Part shown: positions 6,108 through 53,018 of the stretch, piece by piece
How positions within the stretch are numbered: the stretch's first letter is position 1
Layout: each line of letters begins with the position of its first letter
IMG/VR virus record: IMGVR_UViG_3300032020_000845
Span: 42,980 to 106,979 of that record
Length of the DNA: 64,000 nt
Source of the DNA: a virus
Strand: one strand, 5' to 3'
The notes under the pieces: generated by a model
Databases searched by the model: none
The model's input: the letters and a program-made list of their open reading frames with translations, nothing else
What the model was told of the DNA's origin: nothing
Made by a program: the position numbers and the translations under genes

Positions 6108-6136
6108 ATATTAAAATGAAAGAAAAGGAGGATAAA

Positions 6137-30588: not shown

Positions 30589-33500
30589 ATGTTAATTCCA
30601 AAAGAACCAGAAAAAAATAAAAAAACACACAAAAAGTGGTTTAAGGCAGAGAAGCTAAAAAAAGTTGCTAAGAAAGAATCGTTGCCTCAAGAAAAGGAAG
30701 ACTTAATAAGAAAACATGGACAATCAAATATGAAAGAAACTGTTCTTTCATACGCTTGCACAAATTGTAAACATTCCTTTAGTGCTAATAGTTTAAGAAA
30801 AGAAATTATTGAGTCTGCAAAAAAAGGAAGCACTCTTGTTTATTGCCCAAAATGTGGTCTATTTCTTGTTGCAGATCGTAAAACAAAGATTCCTTCTAAA
30901 CTTGGTTCAAAAATAAACAGGAACGCTGATCTAACTGCTATATATCCCAATCAAGGAATAGTTCCAGGCTATGTGCCTAATACTTGGGTTGATCGTGCTT
31001 TACTTGAAAAAATTTGTCACGAACTAGGAAAATATGCCGAATCAGTAGGTATGTTTAATCCTCAATTAAAATTTCAAAGAGGCATTCGAGGAAAAGTTCG
31101 TGAAGGTTCTCCTCAAAATGTGAAATACGCGGAGTATACAATAGAGTCTGTGGATAATTATGATGTTAGATTTCGTGTTATTGCTACTGCTGGAATTACT
31201 CCTATCGGAAAAGTAATAATTTCTAATGTGTTTAGAACCTTGGACGGTAGAGAAATATCGTTCACACAAGAAGGAGTTGAAGGTTTTGTATCAGGTAAAG
31301 TTTATGGTTCTCCAGACGTTAAACCTGTTGTTCCTCAAATTTATTACAAAGAGCGTGATCCTTCGAGGTTTAGAGAAATAGTTGCTTCAAAGAAAACCGC
31401 TTTTGTGAAAGGTATTGATGATATTCCTAATATGGAGTTTTCAGAAATGAAAAGAAAAGTTATGGAAAGGTTAAAACGAAAGTATCCAGAATTCAAAATT
31501 TCAGATCTTGATGCTTATTCAGATAATACTATTGACGGGATGAGAGATCATTGGACTGATTTTGGCAATCCTCGTATGACTGTTCAAGATTGGTTTGAAA
31601 ATGTTGTGGATACGATCGATGCTGATTTAGAGGAGGAGGCTAGTCAGTTTATTACTAGAAAAAAAACAGCAGCAGGTGTTCCTATTCCTGGTCAACAAAT
31701 TGAATATCAAGGAAAGATATATACAGTTGATACTGTTGTTGGAGATACTTCTATATTAAAAGATGAAACAGGATTACAAACAGCTCCGGTTCCTAATTTA
31801 GAGTTAAATATTCAACAAGGAGGTTCTGGTTTAGCAGCTCCTGCTGCTCCTATTACAGCTCCAGTTGCTAAAAAGATTGAAGAAATTGTTAAAAGAGGAT
31901 TAAGGGATGAAAAAACTTTAGTTCCATTTACTGAATCGGATCCTGATTATAGTGTTGCAAAACAAACTGATGTTGATCCAGATTTTAGTACTCCTTATGA
32001 GAAATCTGACCAAGGGATTCTTGAGGAAAAGGATAGAGCTGTTCAGCAAATGTTTAGAGGAGGAACTTCAGTAAGACCTACTAAATCTGCTGCAGAGATA
32101 AGATGGCAAAGAGTGAAGGATGAGTTTTATGATACAGTAGAACAAGATACTGGTCCTTGGGTTTTGAAAACCCTTTCTCTTGAATCATATGTGGATGTAC
32201 CAAAACATTGGCTAGATGCTTTGAGAAAAGATCCAGAAGGCCTTTCTCAAAATTTTGTTTCACATTGGGCTGAGAAACATAGTTATACGTTGCGAGACGA
32301 TGAAAAACGAGAACTTCAAAAATTATTTGTAGATTGGGTGTTTGAATTTGAGACTGAAAAAGAAGCTTCTCTAACCAAAACTGCTCCTGAAAAAGCTGAC
32401 CTTGAAAGTATGGTTCAAAAATGTATGAGAGACAAAGGATGGGAACATGCTAAGTGTATGAATTATGTTGCTGGAGGTGTTTGGCATAGAAAAGGGAAAG
32501 TAGATGGACTACATCCCGGAATGCATGGCCACACAAAAGATGGCTATAAATTTGTTATTCTTGATGTTCAGGGAAATGAAATTCAAGTTGACCAAGAAAA
32601 TATAAGTGGTTCTTTTTGGACTGACCGAAATGAATGGGAAGGAAAAGAAAGTCCTCAATATGTTGAAAAATCATTGGAACCAGGAATGTATGGAAATACA
32701 AAAGATGGTTATAAATTTGTTATTCTTGATGTTGAAGGAGATACAATTCAAGTTGACCAAGAAAATATAAGTGGTTCTTTTTGGATTGGTAGAAACGAGT
32801 GGGAGAAAAAAGAAGCTCCTCACTATCTCCAATATGTTGGAAAACCATTGGAGGAGGAAGAGGGAGAAAAGGAAGCTTCAATAAAGAAAATAGCTGAACC
32901 AACAGGTTATCACGAAACGGATGAAACAGGAAAACAAATTGAACTTTCTCGTTTAAGAACACTTGTTGAGGATTATTATAGAGCAGGACAATTTCCCCCA
33001 GATTTTGATTATACTAAAGTAATGTCAGAGGTTTCTCGAATGACAAGAAAACAACTATTAGATATTCTTGACAAAAAACTTAAAGATACTCATTATCCTG
33101 TTGTTCATGCGAAGAAGAAAACAGCTGTTAGAACAAATATGTTATGTGTTGATAGTGAAGGAGAAAAGATTCAGTTTAAAAAATTGGAAGATGTTTTTAA
33201 TGATTTAGATGATAGATTTTTATCAAATATATACGATGAATTGGAGTGGCTTCCTTTGGATTCGAGAAAACTTAAAGAGGTATTAAAACTACTTGGATAT
33301 TCTCGTATTACTAATAATGATATACAACAGTTATTACAATGGATAAAAGAAGAATCTCCAGAATGGTTTATGACTCTTGAAGAATATAAAAAAGTAGCGG
33401 AAGGATTTATTCAAGAAAGTCTGAAAAAAGTTGCTTCAACAAAAACAGCAGCTACAGTAGATGAGATTAATGAGATTCTTCAAAAAAACTATGGAATAAC

Positions 33501-35970: not shown

Positions 35971-38900
35971 ATGTCCTTTAAAGAAATCGTAGACGAAAAA
36001 TATAAAGAAAAGTCAGAACTGATTGCTCCTATGGAATCAGTTGATGCTTTAACTTTTGTTACCTCTCACAAATGGTTAGGAGAAAAACCATTTCCGTCTC
36101 AAAGTCTTATTTTAAAATTGTTATATGGATTGTGGAAAAAATACCCTATTATTGAGGAAGAACAGAAATTAATTGATACTTTAAAGACTGCGTGGAATAT
36201 TAACATTGATTTAGAAAACAGAGATATAAATCAAGTTATTGAAGTTTTAATTCTTGTAATTGGCCGTAGAGGAAGTAAAAGTTCAGTTGTTTCTTGGATT
36301 GCATCATTTGAGGCTTATAAACTTTTATGTAAAGGAAATCCACAAAAGTATTACAAAATAAGAGAAAGACACCCTATACATATTCTTAATTGTGCTTCTG
36401 ATGGAGATCAAGCTAAAGAAACGTTTAATCTTATAAAAGACAATATTAAGAAAATTGATTTTTTCCAAAAATATATAGATTTTGACAAAGACAACGAAAC
36501 AGAAATGCGTTTATTCTCTCCATATGATTTATTTTTAAATTCTCAAATACGTAGATATAATGAAACTCGGGGAAAAGGATCAATGAAAAAGAACCTATTG
36601 CGGGGTTCTATTTGTATTGAGTCTGTTACTACATCTGCTGCAACTAAAAGAGGAAAAGCAATCATTGGGTTAATTTTTGACGAATTTGCTCATTTTGGAA
36701 GATCTAAATATAGAAAAAGAACTTTGGAAGTTATGGAAGCACCTCAAACTGATCATGCAATGTGGGTTGCTCTTACCCCTTCTGTAAAAGATTTTGGAAA
36801 AGACGGATTAATTATTGCAATTAGTAGCCCTGCAGAAAAAGCTGGAGAATTTTATACTTTGTATTGTTTAGCTGGGGGAATGGAACAAAATGAAAGTGAA
36901 AAACTTCCACCGAATCCAAAATATTTATTGTTACAGCTTTCGACTTGGCAAGCAAATCCAAGGTTTGTAAAAGAAGATTTTGTAGATGATTATAGTAAAG
37001 ATCCTGTAAATGCTTCAATGGAATATGGAGCACATTTTGCAGAACCAGCAGCTTCATTTTTAAATCCTCAAAGAATTGACGATATGGTAGTTGAAGGAGC
37101 CCCAATTTTGTTACGGGGTAGGTCAGGACAATTGTATATTATTGTAGTTGATCCAGCGAGTACTAGTGATACTTATGCAATTGCTTGGGGGCATAGAGAA
37201 GATAGACCAACTGAAAAGTATTGGATTGATGGTTTGAAGGGATTCGAACCTACAACGAAAAGATTAGGGGATGGAAGGATTATTATAGAACCAATTGACT
37301 CTGACATTGTAATGGATTTTCTTTTAACTTTAATTAGAAATTTAAATGTGATGGGAAAGCAGGTTATGGAAATTTGTTATGATCAATGGAATTGTAAGAT
37401 AGGATCAGCTAAACTTTTTACAAATGAAGGAATGAAAACAATTGAAGAATTGTGTAAAGAAAACAAGCCTATTTTAGTTGCAACAAAAGATGGTTTTGCA
37501 AAGGCTGAAAAATTTTATGATAATGGTGTAAGATCTGTTGTAAAAATTCGAACTAAATTTGGTTATGAAGATGTGGGCACTAAAAATCATCCTTTTTGGA
37601 CTAAAAAGGAATGGCAGTGTATTGGAGATTTAAAAGTAGGAGATGAAGTAGCAATACAACCTTCTGCACTTTTTAATAAGTGCTCAACAATTTCTGTAAA
37701 CAGAGCTATTATTTATGGGTATTTAACATCTGAGGGGCAATGTTCTGGAAATAACACTATAATTGGATTTTCTAATATTGAAAAAGATATTCTTGATGAT
37801 TATTGCTTTTTATTTGAACAAGAATTTGGAAAAGTTCCTCATAGAAGGCTTATTAATAAAAAATTTTATAAGACGAGGAAAGATTCAAGAGGGAACATTG
37901 TATTGGAGGATACTGCAGCCTTATGGTCAAAAGAGATTACTGAAGAATTACGAAAGCATGAAGTATTAGGGACGTCATTTACAAAACATGTGCCCAAACC
38001 TATTCGCGAAGGGTCAAAAGAAGTGTGTTGTGCTTATCTTTCTGCATTATTCGAAGGAGATGGAACAATTGGATTTTATCCACAAAAAAATACAAAATAT
38101 GGACAAACAGATACTTATATTTGTTATGATTCTCGTTCTGAAGACCTTGTTAAAGATGTGCATTTAATTCTATTAAATTTGGGAATAATATCTTCGAGAA
38201 TGACCGGCATACAAGTAGGAAAACCTGTACATAGAATAACAATTAGAGGAAAGAATATTGATAGATTTGCAGTTCTTATAGGTTTTCGTGGTAAACGAAA
38301 AAAAGCACGTTTAGAAAAAGTTTTAGATCATCGTAGGCCATTGAAGAAATTTAGAGTTAAATCTTATTTGGATAATGATAATATTTTTTGGGATAAGATT
38401 ATCTCAATTGAAGAAATGCCTCCAGAAAGAGTATATGATATTACTGTTCCAGGAAAGCATTCTTTTGTTGTTAATGGATTTATTACTCATAATAGTATTG
38501 ATAGTATTCGTACATTGAGAAAAATGAAATTACCCGCATTTGAAACAACTTTTACGAACCCATATAAAGGTGTTATATATGGGACCTTTTTAGAAAAATT
38601 AAATCAAGGACAAATGTGTTGCTATGAAATAGATCCTGATCCTGCTGAGAACTGGGTTGCTAAGTTAAAATTAGAATTAAAATATTTACAAAAGATAATA
38701 AGTGGGGGAACTACATATTATGCAGCTCCAACAAGTGGTCCAGTTACCACAGATGATTTTGCAGATTGTTGTGCTAATTTAGTATACCGATTATCATCTC
38801 GTAAAGAAATGTCAAGCAAAACTATTAGAGAATTACATAAGCAACTTGGATCTCCAATTCCATTAGGAAGAGTTATTAATCCTCAAAAAGGGGGCCCAAT

Positions 38901-38973
38901 ATGGGGGGGTAAGAAAAAAGAGGATATAAGAGACAGACTTCGAGGAATAGATTCAAAAAGAAGTTGGAGATAA
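35971..38973 (+). CDS. terL: Terminase large subunit (633 aa after splicing), intein-containing
   Basis: Walker A GRRGSKS, Walker B LIFDEFAHF, ISSP, TW-x2-NP, nuclease VDPAS, YDQWN/S, TDDFAD. Confidence 0.88.
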   Translation: MSFKEIVDEKYKEKSELIAPMESVDALTFVTSHKWLGEKPFPSQSLILKLLYGLWKKYPIIEEEQKLIDTLKTAWNINIDLENRDINQVIEVLILVIGRRGSKSSVVSWIASFEAYKLLCKGNPQKYYKIRERHPIHILNCASDGDQAKETFNLIKDNIKKIDFFQKYIDFDKDNETEMRLFSPYDLFLNSQIRRYNETRGKGSMKKNLLRGSICIESVTTSAATKRGKAIIGLIFDEFAHFGRSKYRKRTLEVMEAPQTDHAMWVALTPSVKDFGKDGLIIAISSPAEKAGEFYTLYCLAGGMEQNESEKLPPNPKYLLLQLSTWQANPRFVKEDFVDDYSKDPVNASMEYGAHFAEPAASFLNPQRIDDMVVEGAPILLRGRSGQLYIIVVDPASTSDTYAIAWGHREDRPTEKYWIDGLKGFEPTTKRLGDGRIIIEPIDSDIVMDFLLTLIRNLNVMGKQVMEICYDQWNCKIGSAKLFTNEGMKTIEELCKENKPILVATKDGFAKAEKFYDNGVRSVVKIRTKFGYEDVGTKNHPFWTKKEWQCIGDLKVGDEVAIQPSALFNKCSTISVNRAIIYGYLTSEGQCSGNNTIIGFSNIEKDILDDYCFLFEQEFGKVPHRRLINKKFYKTRKDSRGNIVLEDTAALWSKEITEELRKHEVLGTSFTKHVPKPIREGSKEVCCAYLSALFEGDGTIGFYPQKNTKYGQTDTYICYDSRSEDLVKDVHLILLNLGIISSRMTGIQVGKPVHRITIRGKNIDRFAVLIGFRGKRKKARLEKVLDHRRPLKKFRVKSYLDNDNIFWDKIISIEEMPPERVYDITVPGKHSFVVNGFITHNSIDSIRTLRKMKLPAFETTFTNPYKGVIYGTFLEKLNQGQMCCYEIDPDPAENWVAKLKLELKYLQKIISGGTTYYAAPTSGPVTTDDFADCCANLVYRLSSRKEMSSKTIRELHKQLGSPIPLGRVINPQKGGPIWGGKKKEDIRDRLRGIDSKRSWR
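37393..38493 (+). mobile_element. Intein (367 aa) with LAGLIDADG homing endonuclease
   Basis: Starts CKIGSAKLFT; block B GTKNHPF; GYLTSEG and ALFEGDG; ends VYDITV...FVVNGFITHN followed by Ser. Removal restores YDQWNS. Confidence 0.92.
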
Positions 38974-39437: not shown

Positions 39438-40127
39438 ATGCCGAAAGATAAGAAGAAACAAACAGATCCAACAGCTTTAGTTGAGAAGCAGGAAAGTAAA
39501 GATTTAAAGGAAAATACTATTGTTATCATCAATGGTCAAAAACTTGATCCAAAAGAATTACAGTCGCTTACAATTCAGTATTTAGATGGCACGTTGGTAG
39601 TGGAACTTACTACTATTACTGAAATGCAAAAAACGTTTACTTCTGCTCCAGATTCCCATACCCAAAGCGTAGATTCACATACATTATTAAAGTCATTGGT
39701 TCCACTTAATTTAAAGGTTGAAAAGGCCCCTTCAACTAAAGGCATTAGTATTACAAAAACTAAAGGTCCAGAAGTATATCCATTAGATGAAGATGGTCTT
39801 TTGAAGCTTAGTGCTATGAGTACTCTTAGAACTAATAAGAAGGATGATAGCAACAATCCAGTTTCAAAACTTAAACTTGTGTTGACTAAAAAGGCATTAC
39901 AAAATTATGATATTGTGGAAAACCTACAACTAACTACAGACGATTTCAATATAACAGATGTTACTAGTATTTCTTCTGCTTTAAATGATTTGGCAGTGCT
40001 AGAACAAAAAGTCCAACGAGATCCGATGGTTGTAAAGGTTGTGGAAGTTTCAAGTCCAAAAATTGTTATTACAGAAAATATATTTCACTTAACTGAAAAA
40101 TTTAAATTATATAAGGTGAAAGAATAA
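39438..40127 (+). CDS. Hypothetical protein
   Basis: 229-aa ORF with strong SD AAGGAGG. Confidence 0.65.
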   Translation: MPKDKKKQTDPTALVEKQESKDLKENTIVIINGQKLDPKELQSLTIQYLDGTLVVELTTITEMQKTFTSAPDSHTQSVDSHTLLKSLVPLNLKVEKAPSTKGISITKTKGPEVYPLDEDGLLKLSAMSTLRTNKKDDSNNPVSKLKLVLTKKALQNYDIVENLQLTTDDFNITDVTSISSALNDLAVLEQKVQRDPMVVKVVEVSSPKIVITENIFHLTEKFKLYKVKE

Positions 40128-40338: not shown

Positions 40339-43300
40339 ATGATAAAATTAGGTAGTGAACCGAATTGGGTTTTTGCAGATCTTGATTTGATTTCTGAATT
40401 ACTGGTTGAAAATAATATTCCTATTGAACATCCAAATTACGAAAAATACAAAGATTATATATTAGGCAAGTTTGAAGGAACGTGGTTTGTTTCTCCAGAG
40501 GAAATGGAAAAGGCAGTTCTTCAATATATTCCAAAAACAGCTTCTTTAAATTTTCGAAAAACAGCTGAACCTGAAACCCTTCAAGAAAATTTCTACGAAC
40601 CAGGAAAGTCCGATGAATATCCAAAAGGACCTAAAAAACCTCGCTTACGCTTTCCATTTTATAATTATCCAGATGATCAAGGAAATATAATTAACATAAA
40701 ACCTGATATTTCTAATCCAATGGAATATGATACAACTCCAGGACCTCATCCTCAAGGACCTGGAATATGTGGAAGTTTAAGTATGAAAAAGAGAGCACAA
40801 TCTAAAGGTCTTCTTACCTATAAAAAGCTTACGGATATTATGATGGTAGTGAAAGATCTTCAGCAGGTTGACTCTTTAGACTCTGACGAGGTTGAAGACC
40901 TTGCTGAAAATCTATATAATATTTTTGGAAATGATATATTGTCGGGAGCAATCTTAGCGGCGCATGAAGATAAAGCTTCTAGGTTTATACAAATGATAGG
41001 AGAGTATTTAGCTTTATCAACGAAAATAGGGTTGAAACCTTTAACTAAAGAGCTTTTAGAGAGTTTGATTAAGGTTTGCCAAGATCCAAGTAACCCAAAA
41101 CATCAGATAAAGAAAGTTCCTTTGGAAGATGTTTTTGAACCTAAGAAAGAAGAAGATGAATTTGAGGAAACTGAAGAAGAGATAGGTGAAAGATGGAAAG
41201 AAAAAGAAAAACAGATTCTACCTGAAAAAAAAGAACTCTCTCCAGAAACAATGGAAGTTCCCTATACCTTTCTACGAGACAAATACACTGAAGATGAAAT
41301 ATGGGATATAGCTAGAGGTAGAAAAACTGATGTATCTCCAGAAGAAATAGAAATGGCTAAATTTGTAATTGAGAGAGGTATTGTAGCCGGTAGATTGGGA
41401 ATGAGAAAAACTTCAACAACTGTTTCTGAACCAACTCCTGATGAATCATTACATGAACAACAAGGAGAACATCCAGGGCATACTTATTTTCAAGGAAGAG
41501 ATGAATGGGAAGATAAAGAACCTGATCAGGGGTTTGATATATTATTTCCAGAGAAGGTAAGAATAAAAAGGGATCCTTGGCTTTTTGAAGATAATCCAGT
41601 ATCTGAAATGACTGCAAGTAGATTAAATATGAGAAAGAAAGCTTATATTAATTTAGATAATTTAAAAAGATTATATGAAGGACAATTAAAACATCTTGGA
41701 GTTTATGATAGAGAATTAATGGAAGAAGTTAGAACAGATTTATTAGTAAATTTAGAGAATTTGATAAAAAGTACATTTAAAAAGTATAAAGGTTGGGAAG
41801 AAGAAGATATTCCAGCGGATCTTGAAGTTATTCAAGAATATGTTGATGGTTTAAAACAATCGCTAAAAAAAGATTCAGATTTAATGGTAATGATTGATTC
41901 GACAGTGAATGTTATACATCATTTTTTTGAGGATCATGGAGAACATTATTTGCTTTCTGAGATAGTTAATCCTAGACAAATTGAAAGGGCAGAAGAATTA
42001 CTTGCTACTATTTTTTCGCAAGTTAGTGAAAAATTGGAAGAAAAAGAAGAAAAACCAAAACCTTCCATACCTAAAAAAGTTCCTTTTGTTGATAAACGAG
42101 GTAATCCTCTTAAAATAAATGATATTGTATTTGCAAAAGATGAAGGATATTTTGGTAAATATGGAAGAATTGTATCCGTTGATCCTGAACCAATATATCT
42201 TTCTGATTTAGAAAAGTGGACTTATTCTATGTATGTAGAAACTACAGTAACAGAAGAAATGTTGGCAACTGAAGTAGTGTTAAGTAATGATATTGATAAG
42301 GATTCTATTGCGGTTGAGGCTACTAATCATATTCTTCAATTGGTAAAGAAAAAAGCATTTGATGTGAACAGTGCTTTTGATGTAATATTAGATGAATTGT
42401 ATATTGTTCTTGATCAAGAAATGATTCAGAAAATTAAAAATAATTTATATGATGAAGGGATAGATATAGAAAAAGAAGCTAAAAAATTATTGAGTGTAAG
42501 AAAAAATAATTCAACTTTTCAATTAAGTATACGAAAGAAAGCAATTATTTCTCCATTGCAACTAAAAAAGTTGTATGAATTAGAATTGTTATATAGAAAA
42601 GGAAATTTTGGTATTGAAGAGCAACTCGACAAATTATCAGAATATATAGTAAAAGAATTAATAGAGTTTTTAAATGATTGGTTACAATTTTATATTGCTG
42701 AGGAAGGACTAAATGAAGAAGCAAAAGCAGCAACAAATAGATTAGAATCTTGTAAACAAGAACTCGAGAATGCTTTTGATATCGATTCAAAAATAGTTGC
42801 AATAGATACTACTATAAATACAATGCATGTTGATTATGATGTCTTTGAACATTTAATTATGACATTTGAAGAATATGCAGAAAGGGAATTTAGATCAAAT
42901 AGAAAAGAGATACAAAAACACTATCAAGTATGGGATTCTTTGAAGACTTTTCTTCAGGAACAGGGTAAACTTACTGAAAGAATTTTTGAAAATAGATTAA
43001 ATATGAGAAAAATAGCTCTTGATCCTTTAACTCAAAGAGAATTATTACAAACTGGAATATTATTTCCATCTCCGGAATTTATAGAAAAAATGAACCTAAA
43101 AAAGGAAAAAGATAAAGAAGAACAAAAAGATAAATATAGAAGTTTTCAAAAACCTTTTGAACTAAAACATGAAAAAGGTTTAAAAGAAACTATACGAAAG
43201 AATATTGAGGAACAATTTATTATACCTCAACAACTAAAACTTCGATTTGACAAATTTGCGCAGGAATCCCCTAGAACCTTGGGGCCTCAAATAACAAAAC

Positions 43301-44778
43301 AAAAAATAAGAAGATTATATGAACAAGAAGCTAAAGGTATTTATGATGAAGAATTACTGGATGAAATTATTTCAGGATTTTTAGTAACTTTAGAAAGTTG
43401 GGTTAATTTTGAAGAATACAAAATAAAGTATCTTTTGCAATATGTAACTGATGATAGTTATGATCTAATTAGAGAAGCAGAAGATTTAATTCAACCTTTA
43501 CACTCAGCAACAACTCCACAAGAGAAAATGATTGCAATAGATACTGTAATAAATATTGTTCATCAAACGGGAAAATATGGAGAGTATTTGATAAAAGGAA
43601 TAGACCCTGGAGATTTATCCTTTTTTGATGACCTAAGTAATTTGAAAGTTAGTAGTTTAAGTTTAAAAAGAATTGCTCAAATTACAGAAGTTAACATTGG
43701 AGATGAAGTAGAATTTGACACTACTCGTTATTTTCGAGTTGGTAGAAGTAAACAAGGAGGAGTTTTAAAAGGTAAAGGAATTGTTAGAACGAAGAATGAG
43801 GATGGTTCATATGATATTGAGATAACAGAAATAACTAATGCTCATATAGATATTGCTCATATATTTAAACCTGGGCGTACTACTCCCTTTTTGGTAGATG
43901 AAATAAAAGCATTTGTAAAACCAAAATTTGAGCCTAAAAAAGAAATTCCAACTCCTGTCGAGGAGCCTAAAATTGAAAAACCTAAAGAAGTAAAAGTTGA
44001 ACCAGAGAAAGTTCCTGTTGAAAAGCCTATTATTTTTGAGTTAGCAGAACCAGAAGAAGAAGAAATTCCAATACCTGTTGAAGAGTTTGGAGAACCTGAA
44101 CCAAAAAAACTAAAGAAAAAATTTCCAACTTGGAAAGAATTGGGGCAAATTGTTTGGGAGTCTTTTAAAAGACCTGTGACAAGACCTTTTGGTAGTATAT
44201 TAAATATGAGAAAAGCTAATAAAATATCAGGCCGAAAACTCCTGTCTGTAGGCTTATGGGCTATTTATAATGGAGAGATATATAGTAAATTAGAAGATGT
44301 GAATAAATACGAGGGACATGAAAATTGGTTTGTAGAATTAGGTTTACCTGTGAAAGGAACAGAATACGATTATATTACTCGTGGTATTTATAGACCAGAT
44401 AGAATAGTATGGTATGAAGGTACTGGAACTTTTGAAGAATTTTCTGATAATATTGAAGAGTTAAGAAAAAAGTTAGAATTACCGGAGAATGTTAAAATTG
44501 AATCTGCCCCGGGTTTCTCAGAAATAAAAAAAGCTGAATTAGATATGAGAAAATCAGATATACAAAAAGATGTTCCTATTGAAAGTGCTTCTCCTATATT
44601 TAAACCTGAAGATACAATTAAGAATAAATCAATGGAAGAAGCTACATACAAAGTAATGGAATATGATCCAAAGGTTGATGAATATTTAATTGTTGGTGGT
44701 GTTAAAGATAGAATAATAAGAGTAGATCGAAAAACATTGGAAAATATTTGTGACTTAGTTGAGGGGGAGGGGAAATGA
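40339..44778 (+). CDS. Modular polyprotein 3 (1479 aa) with about 11 L-x-M-R-K-x-A linkers
   Basis: SLNFRKTA, SLSMKKRA, RLGMRKTS, RLNMRKKA, LVKKKA, QLSIRKKA, RLNMRKIA, LRFDKFA, SLSLKRIA, ILNMRKA, ELDMRKS. Confidence 0.82.
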   Translation: MIKLGSEPNWVFADLDLISELLVENNIPIEHPNYEKYKDYILGKFEGTWFVSPEEMEKAVLQYIPKTASLNFRKTAEPETLQENFYEPGKSDEYPKGPKKPRLRFPFYNYPDDQGNIINIKPDISNPMEYDTTPGPHPQGPGICGSLSMKKRAQSKGLLTYKKLTDIMMVVKDLQQVDSLDSDEVEDLAENLYNIFGNDILSGAILAAHEDKASRFIQMIGEYLALSTKIGLKPLTKELLESLIKVCQDPSNPKHQIKKVPLEDVFEPKKEEDEFEETEEEIGERWKEKEKQILPEKKELSPETMEVPYTFLRDKYTEDEIWDIARGRKTDVSPEEIEMAKFVIERGIVAGRLGMRKTSTTVSEPTPDESLHEQQGEHPGHTYFQGRDEWEDKEPDQGFDILFPEKVRIKRDPWLFEDNPVSEMTASRLNMRKKAYINLDNLKRLYEGQLKHLGVYDRELMEEVRTDLLVNLENLIKSTFKKYKGWEEEDIPADLEVIQEYVDGLKQSLKKDSDLMVMIDSTVNVIHHFFEDHGEHYLLSEIVNPRQIERAEELLATIFSQVSEKLEEKEEKPKPSIPKKVPFVDKRGNPLKINDIVFAKDEGYFGKYGRIVSVDPEPIYLSDLEKWTYSMYVETTVTEEMLATEVVLSNDIDKDSIAVEATNHILQLVKKKAFDVNSAFDVILDELYIVLDQEMIQKIKNNLYDEGIDIEKEAKKLLSVRKNNSTFQLSIRKKAIISPLQLKKLYELELLYRKGNFGIEEQLDKLSEYIVKELIEFLNDWLQFYIAEEGLNEEAKAATNRLESCKQELENAFDIDSKIVAIDTTINTMHVDYDVFEHLIMTFEEYAEREFRSNRKEIQKHYQVWDSLKTFLQEQGKLTERIFENRLNMRKIALDPLTQRELLQTGILFPSPEFIEKMNLKKEKDKEEQKDKYRSFQKPFELKHEKGLKETIRKNIEEQFIIPQQLKLRFDKFAQESPRTLGPQITKQKIRRLYEQEAKGIYDEELLDEIISGFLVTLESWVNFEEYKIKYLLQYVTDDSYDLIREAEDLIQPLHSATTPQEKMIAIDTVINIVHQTGKYGEYLIKGIDPGDLSFFDDLSNLKVSSLSLKRIAQITEVNIGDEVEFDTTRYFRVGRSKQGGVLKGKGIVRTKNEDGSYDIEITEITNAHIDIAHIFKPGRTTPFLVDEIKAFVKPKFEPKKEIPTPVEEPKIEKPKEVKVEPEKVPVEKPIIFELAEPEEEEIPIPVEEFGEPEPKKLKKKFPTWKELGQIVWESFKRPVTRPFGSILNMRKANKISGRKLLSVGLWAIYNGEIYSKLEDVNKYEGHENWFVELGLPVKGTEYDYITRGIYRPDRIVWYEGTGTFEEFSDNIEELRKKLELPENVKIESAPGFSEIKKAELDMRKSDIQKDVPIESASPIFKPEDTIKNKSMEEATYKVMEYDPKVDEYLIVGGVKDRIIRVDRKTLENICDLVEGEGK

Positions 44779-47700
44779 CTTTATTTATGAGAAAGAAAGC
44801 AGGGATTGAAACTCATGAATATAGATTTAAACAATTTCACAACCATAAAATTCCAGCATATACTTTTATTGGATATCAAGAAATTCCTTCTGGTGGGAAA
44901 ATGTTGATGTTTAATTGTAATATTTGTGAGAGTACCTTAATGTTATTTCCAGAAGAAGTTAAAGCTAATATAGATAGAATTTCTGGTTTGCTAGATGATT
45001 GGGAACAAGTTGTTAGTAACATAAAAAAGGCTAATGAATTTACATCCATAGAAAAAGAATTTGTATTAAAATTTGTAAAAGAATTTGAAAGGATGAATGA
45101 CGCTAAAGAAATTTATGAGGAATTAGTTAGTGATACATTTATGTTTGAACTGACAAATCATTTGGAAGAGGATTTAGGCATTTCAAAAGAGGATAGCAAT
45201 GATTTTGCTCTTGCTATTTATAATCGATTATATTCGGATTATCGTGTATTTACAGAAGTTCCTTTTCAAAGTGTTGGAAGTTTAAGGTTTGAGAATATAA
45301 AGAAAAATATAGATAAAGTAAAAATTTCCACAAAATATAGAGGTCCTGTTGTATCAATTTTAGAAAGTATTGCTCCGGCAGTTTGGAGTGCTTCTGGTTT
45401 AAAAGAGGCAAAAGATATAATTATAAGTACAGTTTCAGGTTCTCATATTGATGAAGATGATAAACAAAAGATTTTAAATAATGTTGATAAAATTAACAAT
45501 TTATTAGAATTGCAAAAGTATATTGCAAACTCAATTTTGTTTTATGAAGGAATGGGGACAAAGTTAAGTATGCGAAAGAGATCTCAAATAGATAAACAAC
45601 TATTTTTTGACTTTTATGGAGTATCTTTACTGTCAGATAATTACTTAGAACAAAATCCTTACGCAAAACAATATAGAAATATGATTGTACAAAGTATAAA
45701 AGATGTTTATGTTCCTCTGATTACTAAAATGGTTTATAGTGAACTTAGAAAACATACTGATCGCATGTATAATTGGGAGGATTGGATAGAAGAATTTAAT
45801 CTTAAAAATGTCAATAGTCTTACTTTAGAACAACTAGCTCAAATATATAATGAAGGAGTCTGGGTAACAGAATATGGTGGTCCCTCTTGGGGGTCTATTG
45901 TTGAATCTCTAATTCAACTTAAAAATACTTCTGATACTAATCAACTCATAACTGTTATAGATCATATCAATGATATTGAACACAATACTGGTTTAATGTT
46001 TCACGATTTTCCGAAAGTCAAAAAGTGGTTTTCTGATGCTTTAGAAACTAAAGCTCAAGCAACTCCTGAACAACTTATACCTTATCTTTCTTCTGATTTA
46101 CAAAAATTAGTTATAGAAGATTTAAGATTAAAAGGAAAAGAAATTATATCTCCCGAAAAATATATTACAAGAGATGAAAAATTTGAACTTGCCCAAAATC
46201 CATCAACTCCTCCAGAAATCTTAGCTGAATTAGCAAAAGATAAAGATGAATTTGTTCGTATAAATGTTGCAGGAAATCCAGAAACACCTCCAGAAATCTT
46301 AGTAGAATTAGCGAAAGATATAGATAAGTATGTTCGTATACGGGTGGCTTATAATCCCAATACCCCTCCCGAATCATTAGTGGAATTAGCTAAAGATGAA
46401 GATGAAGAGGTTCGTTTGTATATTAAAAGAAATCCTTCTACTCCTCCTGAAACTTTAGCAGAATTATCAAAAAATACATTAGAGTGGGAGCGTCCTGAAA
46501 TAAAAGAAGAAGAAAGCTTTAACTTAAGTATGAGAAAAACATCAATTTCGGACCAAGAAATTATTAACAATACTATTTTCTATTTCACAAAAGAAAGAAT
46601 AGATTTACCGAAAACTGAAACATATATTTATGATTATCTTCTAAATCAACATCCAGAATTAAGTTCTTGGGAAATAGAAAGACTTACACAAAAAGTATTA
46701 AATATTTTACCCAAACCAGTTTTAACAAAAGTTCATAAAACAGCAAAAGTGTTTACTATGGGAACTCCAGATACTTTTGAATCTGGGTGGGCAATATATC
46801 AAGGAAACATTTATATAAATTATGGTAGGGAGGAACACCATTCTCAATGGTTTGAAAAATTTGGTCTTCCTACTTCAGGAAAGGCTTTTGACGAGTTAGT
46901 TCGAGGGTATTCTGAAGGCGGAAGAATTGTTTGGTATGGAACTGGAGATTATAATGAGTTTGCAGATTATTTACCAGAATTAGTAAATGCTTTAGGAATA
47001 TCAGATCCTACTATACAAATGATTGATTATACAACACAAGAATTTAAAACTTTAGCAATGAAAAAGGAAACATCTATCCTCGATTACCCACATAAATATT
47101 TAGATTCTGAAATATGGGATTTGTCAACTGATCCTCCAAAACTAAAAAAAGATATTAAAAGTTTTATTATGAATCGTTTTATTGATTACTTGGTAAAAGA
47201 AGGATTAAATAGTCCAGAATTGTGGTGTAAGGAATTTTACTATACAGGGTCAACTGCTACACATCAATATCAAAAATCTTCTGATATAGATATTCATATA
47301 AGAGTCGATTGGGAAGCATATAAAAAAACTAATCTAGATAAAGCAAAAGAAGATGCTGAAGAAATGCGTAAAGATTTGTTAAAAGTGTTTTGGAATACTT
47401 TAAACAAAGAATATCTACCTGGAACTTCACACCTTCTTACATATTATATATTGTCTGAATGGGAAGATGTAATGACACAAACGGAAGAAGCATATGATAT
47501 ACAAAAAGATGTTTGGATTGTTCCTCCTCAAAAAATACCTGAAACATATGACACAGAACAAAAAATAGATTTACTACAAGAACAAGCAAACTACATTATG
47601 GAAAAATTAGATGTGGAATTAGGTAAAACAAAAAGAGATTTTGTTGACTATAAGGTTTTAAAAGAGCTATTAGGTTCTTACGAAGGAAACAAAGCAGATA

Positions 47701-50396
47701 TTCAAAGATTAGTAGAAGAAAAGTTAAAGAAAGTTGAACAAGATTTAAAACAATTACAAGAAGAGAATATAAAAATTCATGAAGAAAGGAACAAGGCTTT
47801 TTATGACGGTCAAGAACCGATTGAAGAAGGATTAAGTAAAAACTGGACTCCGGGAAATATTATTTTTAAGTTAATTGAGAGATACAAATATATAGACATA
47901 TTGAGAAAAATTAAGCAAATAATTAAGGATGAAAAAATTACTGGGGAGGAAGAAAAAGAATTAGAAGATATTTTGGAACCGAAATTAAGTGCTGAATTAT
48001 CAACACTTTGGGCAATTTATAATGGTACTATTTATATTGGGAAACAACTTGGGCTTCTAACACATTCAACTTGGTTTGAAGAAATAGGTCTTCCAAGTAG
48101 TGGTTATGAATTTGATAAAGCTGCTCGCGGTTATTATCTTCCTGATCCAAATATTATTTATTGTTATGAAAATATTGAATCTTGGAATGAATTAATTGAT
48201 AATTTACCTAAATTAGTAGAAAAATTGCAAGCAGATTTAAATACTTTAAAAATTTATTTTGCTAAAGAAAATGATATTCCAAGAGTACTTAAATACAAAG
48301 ACCTTTTTGTAAATGCTTCAAAATTAAGTATGAAGAAAGCTAAAATTTTTCCAGGAGGTTTATGGGCTATTTATAATGGAAAGATATATACTACTGACGA
48401 AGAAGATGAGCATGATAAATGGTTCGAAGATATAGGGTTGCCTTCATATGGTGAAGAATATGATAGTATTACTCGGGGTGATTATGATTCAACAGGGATA
48501 TTATGGAATTTTGATACTGGTACTTTTGAAGAATTTTCAGATAATCTTCCGAAATTATTAAAAATATTGGGGTTACCTAGTACCACTAATGTTATGGTTC
48601 CAAAATTAAGTATGAGAAAAGAGACTTCAGTTCCAAATCTAATTCTTGAACAATTAGATTATCCTCATTCTTGGCCTCAAAAAAAGAGAGACGATAAAAA
48701 GGAGAAAGATGAATCTATTGGTTTTGGTATATTTCAAGGGGACTATGATGAACTTTATGATGTTCTTGATTCTATTAGGGAAGAAATTGCAAACAACTTA
48801 TGTATGAGAAAGACAGCACAAGATATTTCTGATCCTAATAAATTATCAATACAAGAACTTAAACAATTCTATGAATTAGAATTACAAGGATTACTTACTA
48901 ATGAATTTGTGGATAATGTTCTTACTAAACTAATTTATGGACTGCAAATAGAAAAAGAAAGAGTATCAAAAGATCCTGAAATTACGGGATATGTAAAAAA
49001 AGATTTTATAGCAATAGCGGATTTTTATATTAATGAGTTAGAAAAGGTTGCTACAAAAAGTTTAAACAAAAAAATTATTGAAATTGATCAAACAATACAA
49101 GCATTACACTTATCTTATGGGTTTGGAGTATTTCAAGGCGATCCAGATGAAATTTGGGAAACCCTTGATTTTATTGGAGAAACAGTTTGGACTAAATCTA
49201 AACCTTTAGAGTCAAATATTAGTTTGAATATGAAAAAGACAGCTGATCTTTCTGCTGCTCCTGCAATTTCTGATATGGAAGTTCCTGAAAATTGGGGAGT
49301 GCAAGATAAAACAAATATAAAATTAAGACGAAAGAATCCTCCGAGACATGACAAGAATGATTCAATTGTGGAACAGAATATAGTTGATCCTCATATTGAT
49401 ATGGCTTCATTAAATATGAGAAAGAAAATAGGTCAGGAAAAGGAAGAAGGAATTCTGCCAAAACCTCAAGTTACAAAACAAGACTTAATAAAATTATATA
49501 CTCAAGAAGCAAAAGGTATTTACGACGAAGAACTAATGAATGAAGTTATTTCAAAATTTATACAAACTTTAGAAGAATGTGAAGAATTTTGGGGTGCTTG
49601 GATGCAAAAATTCGGAAAGACTTTAATTTTAACATTACTACAAGCAAGAACTCCTCAAGAAAAAATGATTGCAATAGATAGAGTAATAAGTACCGTTCAT
49701 GTCGATGGTGTATTTGGAGAATATTTAATAATAGATGTAATTGGTGATAATTCCTTTTTTGATGAATTGCATAATTTAAAAATTAGTTCTTTGAATTTTA
49801 GAAAAAAAGCAAAAGAAACTAATCTTGACAAAATTGACGAATATCTTTTTGAATTACTTGATGAAGTAAGTGATGGAACAGGTAAAGAAGAAATTACAAT
49901 TGACGGAGAAACTTACTTAATTCATTATGAAGGATGGAGTTCAGGATGTTTTCCTGAAAATTTGCCAGAAAAAGAATGGGAAGATTATGCTGCTGAACAA
50001 TCAAACAAAGTTATTGACGAGTGGAAAGAAGAAGAAAAAAATAGATGGGACATAATTCCAGAATTGTCTGGGTACATTAGTGGAGGATTATATGGAAGGA
50101 CATATACAGTTTTTCATTTGAAAAATAAAAAAGCAAATGTATTTTATAATAGAGAGAAAAAGGGATTTGAAGGACAACCAACAGACAAAAATTATTACAG
50201 CCCTTCTTTACTTTTACGAGAAGATTATGGAACTCCTGGACTTCCTTCAGAACCGGCAAAAGCAGAAGTAGCTGATTTAGGAGAAGACCAATGGGGAGAA
50301 AGTAATAAACTAAAGAAGAAAAAACTTAAAGAGTTAGAATTTCCAGATTTTAATATTCCTTACGGAGTGGAAGGTGGCGACATAAAACAAATTTAG
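44775..50396 (+). CDS. Modular polyprotein 4 (1873 aa) with about 13 linkers; includes LRV repeats and a Pol-beta-like nucleotidyltransferase module
   Basis: LFMRKKA, IKKA, LSMRKRS, LSMRKTS, VHKTA, LAMKKETS, LSMKKA, LSMRKETS, LCMRKTA, LNMKKTA, LNMRKKIG, LNFRKKA, KNKKA; GSTAT...SDIDIH. Confidence 0.82.
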   Translation: MTLFMRKKAGIETHEYRFKQFHNHKIPAYTFIGYQEIPSGGKMLMFNCNICESTLMLFPEEVKANIDRISGLLDDWEQVVSNIKKANEFTSIEKEFVLKFVKEFERMNDAKEIYEELVSDTFMFELTNHLEEDLGISKEDSNDFALAIYNRLYSDYRVFTEVPFQSVGSLRFENIKKNIDKVKISTKYRGPVVSILESIAPAVWSASGLKEAKDIIISTVSGSHIDEDDKQKILNNVDKINNLLELQKYIANSILFYEGMGTKLSMRKRSQIDKQLFFDFYGVSLLSDNYLEQNPYAKQYRNMIVQSIKDVYVPLITKMVYSELRKHTDRMYNWEDWIEEFNLKNVNSLTLEQLAQIYNEGVWVTEYGGPSWGSIVESLIQLKNTSDTNQLITVIDHINDIEHNTGLMFHDFPKVKKWFSDALETKAQATPEQLIPYLSSDLQKLVIEDLRLKGKEIISPEKYITRDEKFELAQNPSTPPEILAELAKDKDEFVRINVAGNPETPPEILVELAKDIDKYVRIRVAYNPNTPPESLVELAKDEDEEVRLYIKRNPSTPPETLAELSKNTLEWERPEIKEEESFNLSMRKTSISDQEIINNTIFYFTKERIDLPKTETYIYDYLLNQHPELSSWEIERLTQKVLNILPKPVLTKVHKTAKVFTMGTPDTFESGWAIYQGNIYINYGREEHHSQWFEKFGLPTSGKAFDELVRGYSEGGRIVWYGTGDYNEFADYLPELVNALGISDPTIQMIDYTTQEFKTLAMKKETSILDYPHKYLDSEIWDLSTDPPKLKKDIKSFIMNRFIDYLVKEGLNSPELWCKEFYYTGSTATHQYQKSSDIDIHIRVDWEAYKKTNLDKAKEDAEEMRKDLLKVFWNTLNKEYLPGTSHLLTYYILSEWEDVMTQTEEAYDIQKDVWIVPPQKIPETYDTEQKIDLLQEQANYIMEKLDVELGKTKRDFVDYKVLKELLGSYEGNKADIQRLVEEKLKKVEQDLKQLQEENIKIHEERNKAFYDGQEPIEEGLSKNWTPGNIIFKLIERYKYIDILRKIKQIIKDEKITGEEEKELEDILEPKLSAELSTLWAIYNGTIYIGKQLGLLTHSTWFEEIGLPSSGYEFDKAARGYYLPDPNIIYCYENIESWNELIDNLPKLVEKLQADLNTLKIYFAKENDIPRVLKYKDLFVNASKLSMKKAKIFPGGLWAIYNGKIYTTDEEDEHDKWFEDIGLPSYGEEYDSITRGDYDSTGILWNFDTGTFEEFSDNLPKLLKILGLPSTTNVMVPKLSMRKETSVPNLILEQLDYPHSWPQKKRDDKKEKDESIGFGIFQGDYDELYDVLDSIREEIANNLCMRKTAQDISDPNKLSIQELKQFYELELQGLLTNEFVDNVLTKLIYGLQIEKERVSKDPEITGYVKKDFIAIADFYINELEKVATKSLNKKIIEIDQTIQALHLSYGFGVFQGDPDEIWETLDFIGETVWTKSKPLESNISLNMKKTADLSAAPAISDMEVPENWGVQDKTNIKLRRKNPPRHDKNDSIVEQNIVDPHIDMASLNMRKKIGQEKEEGILPKPQVTKQDLIKLYTQEAKGIYDEELMNEVISKFIQTLEECEEFWGAWMQKFGKTLILTLLQARTPQEKMIAIDRVISTVHVDGVFGEYLIIDVIGDNSFFDELHNLKISSLNFRKKAKETNLDKIDEYLFELLDEVSDGTGKEEITIDGETYLIHYEGWSSGCFPENLPEKEWEDYAAEQSNKVIDEWKEEEKNRWDIIPELSGYISGGLYGRTYTVFHLKNKKANVFYNREKKGFEGQPTDKNYYSPSLLLREDYGTPGLPSEPAKAEVADLGEDQWGESNKLKKKKLKELEFPDFNIPYGVEGGDIKQI
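46186..46475 (+). repeat. Four 24-aa leucine-rich-variant (LRV/HEAT-like) repeats
   Basis: NP-x-TPPE-x-L-x-EL-[AS]-K at a 24-aa period. Confidence 0.88.
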
Positions 50397-50729: not shown

Positions 50730-52094
50730 ATGATCAAATCTATTGAATGGACTGAAAAAGAAATTGTATTTGTAAAACAAAAAATTAAAGAAGAAGTCCA
50801 CCCCATAGATTTTGTTGATGATTTAAATAAGGAATTTAAAAATAATCGAACGGTAATTTCAATCACCATAAAGTTAGGTCGATTAGGTCTTTCCTATTCT
50901 CATTGTGAATCAAAGAAATCAAAATTATCTCGTGAAGAATTACAAAGTATAATTGAAAACGAAACTTCTGATATCCCCCCACAAAAAGTTGATCAGCTTG
51001 TTGAAAAGGATAGAGAAATACAAAGATTAACAACACAATTAGCAATTGTTAATAGGAAATATCGCGTCGCTAACATAGCTTCAAATCTTCAAGAAAGTAT
51101 CCTTAAAGTTCTTAGAGAAACAGTTCCTGCATTGCCTATTGTTAGAGTTCCTCCGATTAAAAAATCCTTTAAAGTTGAAAGAACAAAAGAAACGGCTTTA
51201 TTGCTTTTATCAGATTTACACGGATGGGAAGTTGTTCGAGGTGTAGAAACCGGAGGAATAAATTCTTACAATTTTGAAGAAATGAAAAATAGATTAAAAT
51301 ATCTTGCAAACTCTATTATTGATATAGCTCATAATAAGCTTCGTGGATATGTTTTTCCAAAGTTAGTTGTTGGTGGTTTGGGAGATTTTGTGTGTGGTAC
51401 TATACATGAAGAATTGGTTGAATCTGCTGAAAATACTCCAATTGAGTGGGCTGAAGGAACTGCTTTGATTGTTGCTCAATTTTTATTAGAATTAGCTCAA
51501 GTATTTCCAGAAATTGAATTTACTGGGATTGTTGGTAATCATGGAAGAATGTCTAAAGAGATACGTTTTAAAAGAAGATATGTTAATTGGGATTATATAA
51601 CTTACACTTTATTGGCTTTATTATTAAGAAACCAAAAAAATATTAAGTTTAATTTACCCCGAAGTTTTTGGGCAATTCAGGAAATTGAAGGAAAGAATTT
51701 TTTGTTTTTACATGGTGACAACATTAATAGTTGGGCAGGAATACCGTGGTATGGAATTCAAAGAATGGTATATAGACTCAGATCTTTACTTGCCTCGAAA
51801 GGAACTAAAATTGATTATGTATGTTTGGGACATTTCCATAATGCGGGAACGTTAGACGATATTGATGGTGAAATTATTATAAATGGAAGTGTTATTGGAG
51901 CTAGCGAATATTCAATTGGTAAATTATTTCTTGGTACAAAAGCTAGACAATTTTTTGCTGGTGTTCATGAACATCATGGCTTGAGTTTTCGTTATAATCT
52001 TAAGTTGCAAGATATCCCAAAATTAGAAAATTTGTATGTATATAATGATAATATATCCATAGTGGATCAGGCTGACGAAATTTTAGAGAAATAA
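50730..52094 (+). CDS. Metallophosphoesterase with N-terminal helical/coiled-coil region
   Basis: LSDLH, LGDFV-x-G-x-IH, GNHGR, HGD, GHFH. Confidence 0.8.
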   Translation: MIKSIEWTEKEIVFVKQKIKEEVHPIDFVDDLNKEFKNNRTVISITIKLGRLGLSYSHCESKKSKLSREELQSIIENETSDIPPQKVDQLVEKDREIQRLTTQLAIVNRKYRVANIASNLQESILKVLRETVPALPIVRVPPIKKSFKVERTKETALLLLSDLHGWEVVRGVETGGINSYNFEEMKNRLKYLANSIIDIAHNKLRGYVFPKLVVGGLGDFVCGTIHEELVESAENTPIEWAEGTALIVAQFLLELAQVFPEIEFTGIVGNHGRMSKEIRFKRRYVNWDYITYTLLALLLRNQKNIKFNLPRSFWAIQEIEGKNFLFLHGDNINSWAGIPWYGIQRMVYRLRSLLASKGTKIDYVCLGHFHNAGTLDDIDGEIIINGSVIGASEYSIGKLFLGTKARQFFAGVHEHHGLSFRYNLKLQDIPKLENLYVYNDNISIVDQADEILEK

Positions 52095-52109: not shown

Positions 52110-53018
52110 ATGGCAAATAAACATATTGAAATAAAACACAAAGAAATTTTATATCCTTCTGTGCTTGTTAAAACTTCAAAGGCGGGAGGAAGCGGAACTG
52201 TAGTTTATTCCAAACCTATTAGTAAAGGTTCAGAAGAGTATGAAACTTATGTTTTAACAAATTGGCATGTGGTGGAGGCTGCTATTGCTGTAAAACGAGA
52301 ATGGGATCCATTACTTTCGAAAGATGTTAAAAAGGAAACGAGAGCAACTGTTACCGTAGAGTTTTATAGGTATAAAAATCTTAGCTGTAACATTGGAAGA
52401 ACTGCAGTAGAAGCGGATATTGTTGCCTATGATAAAGATCAAGACATTGCTTTAGTTAAACTAAGATCCGCGGAACCTGTAAAATATGTAGCACGATTAC
52501 ATCCAAAAGATGTTAAAAATATTCACATTTTTGATACTGTATATATTTGTGGGTGCAGTTTAGGGCATTCTCCTATTCCTACTAATGGAGAAATTACTTC
52601 AATGGATGATGAAATTGATAATTACAAATATTGGATGAGTAATGGACAAATTATATACGGTAATTCAGGTGGAGGAGTTTACCTTGTTAAAACTATTATA
52701 GTTGACGCCCAAAAAGAAAAAGAAGAAGAGTTTTTCGAATTCATAGGGATTCCAAGTAGAATTGAAGTTATTGGTTGGGGAGATAGTATAACGCACATGG
52801 GGTATTTTATTCCAATTGGTAGAATTTATGATTGGCTGGAGGAGGAGATGTTTCAGTTCATTTTTGACTCTAAATTTACTTCAACGCAATGCGAAAAAAT
52901 GAGAGATAAAAGAAAAGAGGAGGCCCGTAAAGCATTTGAAAGGCGTGAAAGAAAAGCTGAAGAAGATTCTGGTTTAGATGAAATAGAAAATAAAGAAGAA
53001 GATGAAAATGAAGAATAA
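52110..53018 (+). CDS. Trypsin-like serine protease without signal peptide
   Basis: Triad motifs VLTNWHVV, DQDIALVKL, YGNSGGG; acidic tail. Confidence 0.88.
   Translation: MANKHIEIKHKEILYPSVLVKTSKAGGSGTVVYSKPISKGSEEYETYVLTNWHVVEAAIAVKREWDPLLSKDVKKETRATVTVEFYRYKNLSCNIGRTAVEADIVAYDKDQDIALVKLRSAEPVKYVARLHPKDVKNIHIFDTVYICGCSLGHSPIPTNGEITSMDDEIDNYKYWMSNGQIIYGNSGGGVYLVKTIIVDAQKEKEEEFFEFIGIPSRIEVIGWGDSITHMGYFIPIGRIYDWLEEEMFQFIFDSKFTSTQCEKMRDKRKEEARKAFERRERKAEEDSGLDEIENKEEDENEE

Follow-up and report, generated by a model that had tools for sequence, protein, structure and literature searches.

In phage T4, the internal proteins IPI-III and Alt carry a capsid-targeting sequence that is removed by the gp21 prohead protease. 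The motifs of head proteases end in Glu (L/I-x-E in T4, S/A/G-x-E in the phiKZ group), and cleavage mostly removes the N-terminal propeptides of single proteins. In SPN3US (gp245), long propeptides are cut at several copies of the motif, with 14 sites in 9 substrates (PMC10052503). Polyvalent proteins are large polypeptides of phages and conjugative elements that combine many (2-15 or more) unrelated domains (Iyer et al. 2017, PMC5512222). Their predicted route is entry into the host along with the DNA, possibly with release through embedded peptidases, a zincin-like metallopeptidase being the commonest, not obligatory, hub, and their conflict domains include nucleotidyltransferase, ParB, zincin peptidase, nuclease and ART domains (PMC5512222). 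Here we describe a pair of polyproteins, B1 and B2, encoded by adjacent open reading frames (ORFs) in the final 64 kb (the window) of the 106,979-bp phage contig IMGVR_UViG_3300032020_000845 (GC content about 31%; completeness 55% by CheckV estimate). Their modules are separated by copies of a short basic peptide, hereafter the linker, which is almost certainly a selected, lineage-specific signal of module borders.

B1 and B2 resemble polyvalent proteins in having 20 modules between them with only two repeated families, in their phage context (terminase, PolA and ThyX genes) and in extensive mosaicism. Conflict-type domains may be a further likeness: B2 itself has a borderline nucleotidyltransferase, and related proteins have ParB, SprT-like zincin, LigD and Acb1 2H phosphoesterase domains. 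They differ in carrying about 20 copies of one peptide in lineage-specific dialects, whereas no conserved linkers were described for polyvalent proteins (PMC5512222), and in that the candidate protease is a separate gene; no peptidase domain was found within B1 or B2 by Pfam at E ≤ 0.01. The T4 and phiKZ/SPN3US systems can be likened to this locus, as a phage protease there reads a short consensus present in many copies in head-internal or ejected proteins. Here, however, the motif is basic and Glu-free and separates about 20 cargo-like modules, the candidate protease has a different fold, and location in the head is hypothetical. Polyproteins of positive-strand RNA viruses likewise give many units per product at short consensus sites read by a virus-encoded protease of the chymotrypsin fold. 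This is no more than an operational analogy, the present system belonging to a double-stranded DNA tailed phage with unrelated modules and an unrelated protease; unlike in RNA viruses, the protease is encoded outside the polyprotein and modules turn over rapidly between relatives. We found no description of such linkers in phage polyproteins in the literature searched.

An earlier note, made from the letters of the window, had listed 18 peptides of the type L-[SN]-M-R-K-[KT]-A in two ORFs downstream of the terminase gene. All 18 lie in frame at the positions given there, in B1 and B2, which do follow the terminase with one 229-residue ORF intervening (Table 1). We found a 19th copy, MT-LFMRKKAG, at the N-terminus of B2, where LFMRKKAG forms residues 3-10. 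The core pattern L[SNGADCF][MF][RK]K matches 7 times in B1 and 10 times in B2 (17 in total), compared with means of 0.037 and 0.043 (about 0.08 together; maximum 2) in 5000 shuffles of each protein. Outside B1 and B2, the six-frame ORFs of the 107-kb contig contain only two matches to the same pattern, and a position weight matrix (PWM) built from the 19 copies gives one weak match among the other ORFs of the + strand. Each linker is a basic island in an acidic chain, the net charge being -70 for B1 and -96 for B2. Strong acidity is common to these chains and the two polyproteins A1 and A2 encoded further upstream, with net charges of -47 to -96 among the four.

A1 and A2 carry linkers of a second type, dialect A. 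We compared the two dialects in position tables of 60 B and 26 A linkers, with the first basic residue as the point of alignment. The B consensus is [S/A]-[S/K]-L-[N/S]-[M/L/F]-[R/K]-K-[K/T]-A-Q, and the A consensus is K-E-A-S-[K/I/T]-K-[T/K]-[A/T]-A. Position -3 is Leu in 59/60 B linkers and Ala in 19/26 A linkers, and at position -1 the B linkers have M/L/F/I where the A linkers have K/I/T. The tables thus agree with the earlier description of dialect B as sharing the end of dialect A, here a basic-basic-small core, and adding a conserved L-x-hydrophobic arm. They contain no conserved Glu at or beside the core.

We then investigated related phages. Scans of IMG/VR and JGI data gave the loci G001 (168 kb; estimated completeness 90%), G002 (73 kb), L066 and L068-L071 (G000 denotes our own contig), and a word-indexed search gave the homologous giant proteins P0005 (2830 residues, binned with Cloacimonetes), P0006 (3263 residues) and P0007 (2405 residues). 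The IMG/VR search for related loci returned nothing for whole B1, P0020, P0054 or the P0017/P0020 alignment. The gene order A1, A2, terminase, 229-residue ORF, B, exonuclease, protease is kept in the relatives. The B linker is also present in G001, G002, P0005, L066 and L069-L071; with the PWM of our own genome, 17 linkers are found in the B protein of G001, 10 in that of G002, 14 in P0005 and none in six A proteins, and a dialect-A regular expression gives the opposite pattern. To keep the comparison non-circular, we also took every match to the common core [RK]K.?[AS] as the sole anchor; Leu then stands at -3 in 35/44 anchors of the relatives' B proteins compared with 1/38 in A proteins (p = 1.5e-13), and M/L/F at -1 separates the same sets with p = 4e-9. 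The two dialects are therefore statistically distinct and the arm is conserved in homologous ORFs, so that neither outcome named in the earlier note as refuting it occurred. Because the split is kept in relatives, it predates the divergence of these phages. A recent, single-genome version of the concerted evolution within each gene pair that the earlier note had offered as an alternative can therefore not account for everything.

Selection acts on the peptide rather than the DNA. Among 84 linkers in eight gene sequences, linker codons vary synonymously about as the gene background does (Leu TTA/TTG, Arg AGA/CGA/AGG/CGT, Lys AAA/AAG, Ala GCA/GCT), which places the constraint on the peptide. The exception is Ser at the Ser/Asn position (+1 in this analysis), which is AGT in 34/36 cases and TCT in 2, a bias explained by the sharing of this position by Ser and Asn, with one-step interchange of AGT and AAT. 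The Leu of the linker is TTR in 80/84. Recoding of stop or sense codons at the linkers was rejected since the linker codons are not uniform, and a signal-peptide n-region was rejected since no hydrophobic stretch follows the motif in the sequences, read by eye.

With the linkers as boundaries, B1 and B2 fall into 20 modules of 62-424 residues. In all-against-all BLASTP comparisons only two families, H and W, are repeated and the other modules are unique, indicating that the motif is not simply carried along with duplicated domains. The H module is helical and has about five copies; the W module (WAIYxGxIY...WF..GLP) has four. The decayed linker TKVHKTA stands ahead of a W module; in P0005, L071, G001 and L069 an intact B linker precedes this domain. 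We modelled one W module together with its two flanking linkers in AlphaFold2 (14-sequence alignment). The model has a core with predicted local distance difference test (pLDDT) values above 90, while the linker segments (model residues 1-9 and 101-112) have values below 50, and the linkers thus lie outside the W fold. Structure comparison of this model (Foldseek, VIA) gave weak gelsolin/ADF-H-like matches (E = 5e-3, Z = 5.3, TM about 0.4) that are below the level of trust, and a protein-atlas search gave no match. W modules recur across polyproteins of every dialect, often in first position. Pfam found LRV repeats and a borderline NTP_transf_2 domain, just over the cut-off, in B2, a rubrerythrin-like stretch in A2, and no match in B1. 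None of A1, A2, B1 and B2 matched a PHROGs family, and phmmer against the PDB returned the LRV repeat only.

The linkers are the points of module shuffling. The genomes differ in the order of their modules, which is scrambled, some modules occur in one genome only, and shared modules are 40-70% identical. In BLASTP comparisons of uncut proteins, 30% of alignment ends fall ≤5 residues from a linker or terminus, compared with 6% for random positions. The two ends of the chain are stable: the N-terminal module of B1 (m0) is the conserved start, and the C-terminal module of B2 the conserved end, of related B polyproteins. The B protein of G001 and G002 is one continuous ORF that starts like B1 and ends like B2, indicating that our B1 and B2 are a split of one polyprotein. 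The split point lies two residues before a linker: the ORFs overlap by ATGA in different frames, GGAGG precedes the B2 start, and B2 opens with MT and the linker. Only the first ~15 residues of the last B1 module (residues 1406-1479) have a counterpart in relatives. Short C-terminal tails are also kept across genomes (A1 ...P-V/E-V-F, A2 ...Q-L-E-L-x-L, B ...G-G-x-I-K-Q-I) and may be anchoring or targeting ends.

With B2 residues 1184-1873 as the query, an exhaustive phmmer search of 1.84 billion representatives returned no more than 49 proteins. These include further B-dialect polyproteins and modules that stand alone as single genes: P0030 (W), P0018 (H), and P0024, P0025 and P0028 (part of the C-terminal module). 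Other members use other dialects: N-L-S-L-K-K/T in P0017 and P0020, K-K-S-F-K-I in P0042 and P0054, and N/S-K-Q-A-N/D in P0036. The homologous Acb1 module is preceded in each case by its own lineage's dialect, 10-13 residues ahead of a conserved [VL]QTS, and the nucleotidyltransferase module is likewise preceded by the lineage's own dialect at the same distance; the forms at these borders are NVNLKK, SLSLKT and KKSFKI. The module border is conserved while the linker code drifts by lineage. Pfam domains of the homologous polyproteins are Acb1 (anti-CBASS), LigD phosphoesterase, LigD primase-polymerase, DNA ligase, ParB_N, NUDIX and SprT-like, the SprT-like zincin occurring only in the distant P0019. 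Modules of Acb1 phosphodiesterase, LigD phosphoesterase, LigD primase-polymerase and ATP-dependent ligase occur in P0009, P0017, P0020 and P0054, a domain content suggesting that polyprotein cargo includes enzymes of counter-defence and DNA-end repair. Sigma-70-like modules seen by eye in P0012, P0023, P0027 and P0032 were not confirmed by Pfam in P0023 and are not claimed.

Past the exonuclease gene downstream of B lies the gene of an HtrA-like serine protease, in our own genome, in G001 and in G002/L068; in G002 one extra ORF precedes the exonuclease. The protein matches Trypsin_2 (Pfam, E = 6.9e-13), and its triad H53/D112/S186 is invariant in four homologues. In a profile search against the PDB, its closest solved relatives are HtrA/DegP protease domains (E = 1.2e-7 to 4e-6). 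It shares with HtrA/DegP (MEROPS S1C) the His-Asp-Ser triad, the GNSGG motif (here GNSGGG) and these best structural matches; it differs in being phage-encoded, in lacking a Pfam match to a PDZ domain and in ending in a long Lys/Glu-rich tail, its specificity being predicted from the alignment. The position equivalent to trypsin 189, six before the Ser, is Q, L or P and not Asp, and a trypsin-type cut after Lys or Arg is thus not favoured. HtrA enzymes prefer aliphatic P1 residues, and such a preference would fit a cut after the M, L, F or I of the linker. A second, shorter HtrA-like paralogue, L014 (G001:38502-39092), has 197 residues from its first Met in a 221-residue open frame. It sits in a variable block of small ORFs that has no counterpart in our own contig, and may bear on the existence of two dialects. 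S78, S77 and ClpP proteases and the HK97 capsid gave no Pfam match in G000, G001 or G002; the S77 model PF03420 was empty in these three and also in the control genomes, and G000 is 55% complete.

We propose that B1 and B2 are modular polyproteins of the polyvalent type, in which about 20 small, independently folding modules would be strung on short, unstructured basic linkers, with [S/A]-[S/K]-L-[S/N]-[M/L/F]-[R/K]-K-[K/T]-[A/S] as the border signal. The linker is fairly likely to be a cleavage site at which a phage protease would cut and free the modules as separate proteins. This reading is favoured by the exposed, unstructured linker segments, the unrelated autonomous modules, the lineage-drifting code and the presence of a dedicated protease nearby. 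The HtrA-like enzyme encoded two genes downstream is the best candidate for the processing protease, an assignment that we make tentatively and hold somewhat less likely than not. It would more probably cut on the C-terminal side of the hydrophobic residue (L-S/N-M / R-K) or of the small residue than after Lys or Arg, and the dialect arm (L at -3, M/L/F at -1) would supply the subsite residues beside the cut, which may set which polyprotein is cut, how fast and by which enzyme. Nothing points to this arm as the pair-specific docking signal of the prohead that the earlier note had suggested, rather than as protease subsites. As cargo, the modules probably serve host takeover or counter-defence, and the linkers double as joints for the exchange of modules between phages. 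Packaging of the polyproteins in the virion is a nearly balanced question, on which we lean slightly to the negative. A bolder and rather improbable extension is that the two orthogonal dialects (A: A-S-x-K-K-T-A; B: L-S/N-M-R-K-K-A) form a heritable cleavage code, which would assign a different timing, place or enzyme to each cargo set (for example, assembly and after injection) and would co-evolve with an HtrA-type protease new to phage cargo processing, the joints letting phages swap modules such as Acb1 as plug-in cassettes. In the distant P0035, linkers of A-like and B-like type appear by eye to occur together, an argument against full separation of the two systems.

Several observations weigh against cleavage at the linkers, or against this enzyme and setting. 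Everything said here on cutting is predicted from sequence. In B2, P0009, P0012, P0015, P0023, P0027 and P0054, a linker and then only a few residues stand at the start or end of the chain, an arrangement unexpected of a site that serves cutting alone but suited to a tag required on every module. L069 has no protease gene within 5 kb downstream of its polyprotein. Conversely, 30 further IMG/VR loci with homologues 32-50% identical to the protease have no linker polyprotein within 10 kb, and three complete phages among them, with homologues 38-50% identical, have neither homologues of the B2 C-terminal modules (residues 1184-1873) nor A or B motifs. For de novo repeat detection we used a calibrated 3-mer test; a reduced-alphabet 5-mer version was too insensitive, scoring our own B2 no higher than controls. 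At a completeness of only about 55%, the contig may lack a further protease gene of this phage. An AlphaFold2 model of the protease (4-sequence alignment) failed, with pLDDT 47, and was not used, so that the specificity argument depends on the alignment. Finally, the setting of the polyprotein genes, amid genes of replication and nucleotide metabolism and beside the terminase gene, is not that of a recognisable head module.

Should the linkers be cut, the enzyme could be another one: a head-maturation protease whose gene lies in the ~45% of the genome outside the contig, the second HtrA-like paralogue (with one enzyme for each dialect) or a host protease. This alternative presupposes cleavage and bears only on which enzyme performs it, and we consider such a substitute fairly unlikely. 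The incompleteness of the contig and the paralogue in G001 leave room for it, members of the HtrA-like family are also encoded by phages that lack such polyproteins (one homologue adjoins portal and MuF genes), and two enzymes would neatly explain two stable dialects. Against this, our own 107 kb contain a single protease gene, the G001 paralogue belongs to a block foreign to our contig, and the 90%-complete G001 gave no S78, S77 or ClpP match, although divergent head proteases can escape Pfam models; the apparently mixed chain of P0035 also argues against one enzyme per dialect. It is unlikely, slightly more so than a different enzyme, that the linker stays uncut and works as a docking or tether motif of each module, binding the capsid interior, the portal, packaged DNA or the AAA+ ATPase encoded upstream of A1, with the chain kept as intact beads on a string. 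The linkers at extreme termini, where cuts would free few residues, suit docking well, as do the basic island in an acidic chain, the conserved L-x-M arm, which resembles a groove-inserting peptide, and the conserved AAA+ ATPase gene beside the A polyproteins. Yet the partner is hypothetical, and modules that are unrelated, stand alone as genes and are freely reordered fit release as separate proteins; the lineage-wide change of the motif is expected of enzyme-substrate co-evolution but would also fit a co-evolving receptor.

The remaining explanations dispense with any reading of the linker by a protein partner. That it is an evolutionary by-product, a recombination joint or remnant copied with cassettes and without biochemical role, is very improbable. 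The shuffling of modules at linkers would agree with it, and the AGT and TTR preferences suggest shared descent or a constraint at the DNA level. However, the codons for Leu, Arg, Lys and Ala vary while the peptide is fixed, in phages whose modules are only 40-70% identical, the AGT bias is accounted for by the single-step Ser/Asn interchange, and each dialect is maintained in its own gene pair in several genomes. We rejected internal initiation of translation, in which the Met of the motif would start many separate small proteins, as having next to no probability. Met is the commonest residue at its position (39/60 linkers) and the database protein P0032 begins MRKKA, but F, I or L replaces Met in 5/19 of our own copies and in 20/60 across relatives. 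A Shine-Dalgarno-like sequence precedes only 2/19 copies, one of them the real B2 start, whereas the true starts of B1 and B2 have strong ones, and there are no in-frame stops between modules.

Table 1. Polyprotein genes, linkers, modules and neighbouring genes in the window (position 1 is the first nucleotide of the 64-kb stretch)
Feature	Position	Strand	Remarks
ORF B1	40339..44778	+	1479 aa; polyprotein, 10 modules / 9 linkers; own Shine-Dalgarno at start
ORF B2	44775..50396	+	1873 aa; polyprotein, 10 modules / 10 linkers; strong GGAGG ahead of ATG
Linker 1 LNFRKTA	40546..40566	+	
Linker 2 LSMKKRA	40777..40797	+	
Linker 3 LGMRKTS	41395..41415	+	
Linker 4 LNMRKKA	41623..41643	+	
Linker 5 LSIRKKA	42523..42543	+	half-copy LLSVRKNN ahead at 42487-42510
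Linker 6 LNMRKIA	42997..43017	+	
Linker 7 LSLKRIA	43657..43677	+	
Linker 8 LNMRKAN	44200..44220	+	
Linker 9 LDMRKSD	44539..44559	+	
Linker 10 LFMRKKA	44781..44801	+	residues 3-9 of B2; copy additional to the 18 first listed
Linker 11 LSMRKRS	45564..45584	+	
Linker 12 LSMRKTS	46524..46544	+	
Decayed linker TKVHKTA	46725..46745	+	
Linker 13 LAMKKET	47052..47072	+	
Linker 14 LSMKKAK	48324..48344	+	N-terminal to modelled W domain, pLDDT <50
Linker 15 LSMRKET	48606..48626	+	C-terminal to modelled W domain, pLDDT <50
Linker 16 LCMRKTA	48798..48818	+	
Linker 17 LNMKKTA	49224..49244	+	
Linker 18 LNMRKKI	49410..49430	+	
Linker 19 LNFRKKA	49791..49811	+	
W modules	44215-44553, 46752-47066, 47997-48338, 48339-48620	+	motif WAIYxGxIY...HxxWFxxxGLPxxGxxFDxxxRG
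Conserved C-terminal tails	30480-30551 (A1), 34740-34770 (A2), 50370-50396 (B)	+	
ORF A1	27648..30551	+	967 aa; dialect-A polyprotein, comparator; B linkers: 0
ORF A2	30589..34770	+	1393 aa; dialect-A polyprotein, comparator; B linkers: 0
AAA+ ATPase, classic clade (AAA + AAA_lid_3)	25701..27116	+	471 aa; directly upstream of A1
Terminase large subunit with LAGLIDADG intein	35971..38973	+	upstream of 229-aa ORF and B1
229-aa ORF	39438..40127	+	between terminase and B1; function unknown; kept in relatives
Exonuclease (metallophosphoesterase, phrog_284)	50730..52094	+	between B2 and protease; neighbour in every related locus
HtrA-like (Trypsin_2) serine protease, candidate processing enzyme	52110..53018	+	302 aa; syntenic with B in G001 and G002

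All genes of the contig are on the + strand, in the order AAA+ ATPase, A1, A2, 258-residue ORF, terminase, 229-residue ORF, B1, B2, exonuclease, protease, ThyX. Genes for a capsid, portal, scaffold or classical head protease could not be recognised in the 107-kb contig, which is an estimated 55% of the genome. The AAA+ ATPase gene occupies the same place in G001 and G002, where the open frames have 467-468 residues and an identical C-terminus, and its product could be an unfoldase partner of the polyproteins or of the protease. In the terminase, the intein with its LAGLIDADG endonuclease spans residues ~483-841; the homologues in L066 and L068 have no intein, and the BLAST pieces join across it. 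At 8118-10634 a family A DNA polymerase has an N-terminal domain of the uracil-DNA-glycosylase superfamily fused to its 3'-5' exonuclease and polymerase domains. A 360-residue protein encoded at 6116-7198 contains two dockerin type I repeats, which are unusual in a phage.

If the linkers are cut, dozens of small proteins would be made from four genes by a polyprotein strategy, which is textbook for RNA viruses and for which we found no description in tailed phages in the literature searched. The two stable dialects make substrate selection directly testable, and a short portable peptide with a cognate protease would be a possible tool. With the same rule, unknown phage proteins in metagenomes could be delimited by a simple sequence criterion. 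Cutting would also explain how these phages easily gain, lose and reorder cargo and counter-defence modules such as Acb1, LigD, ParB and nucleotidyltransferase.

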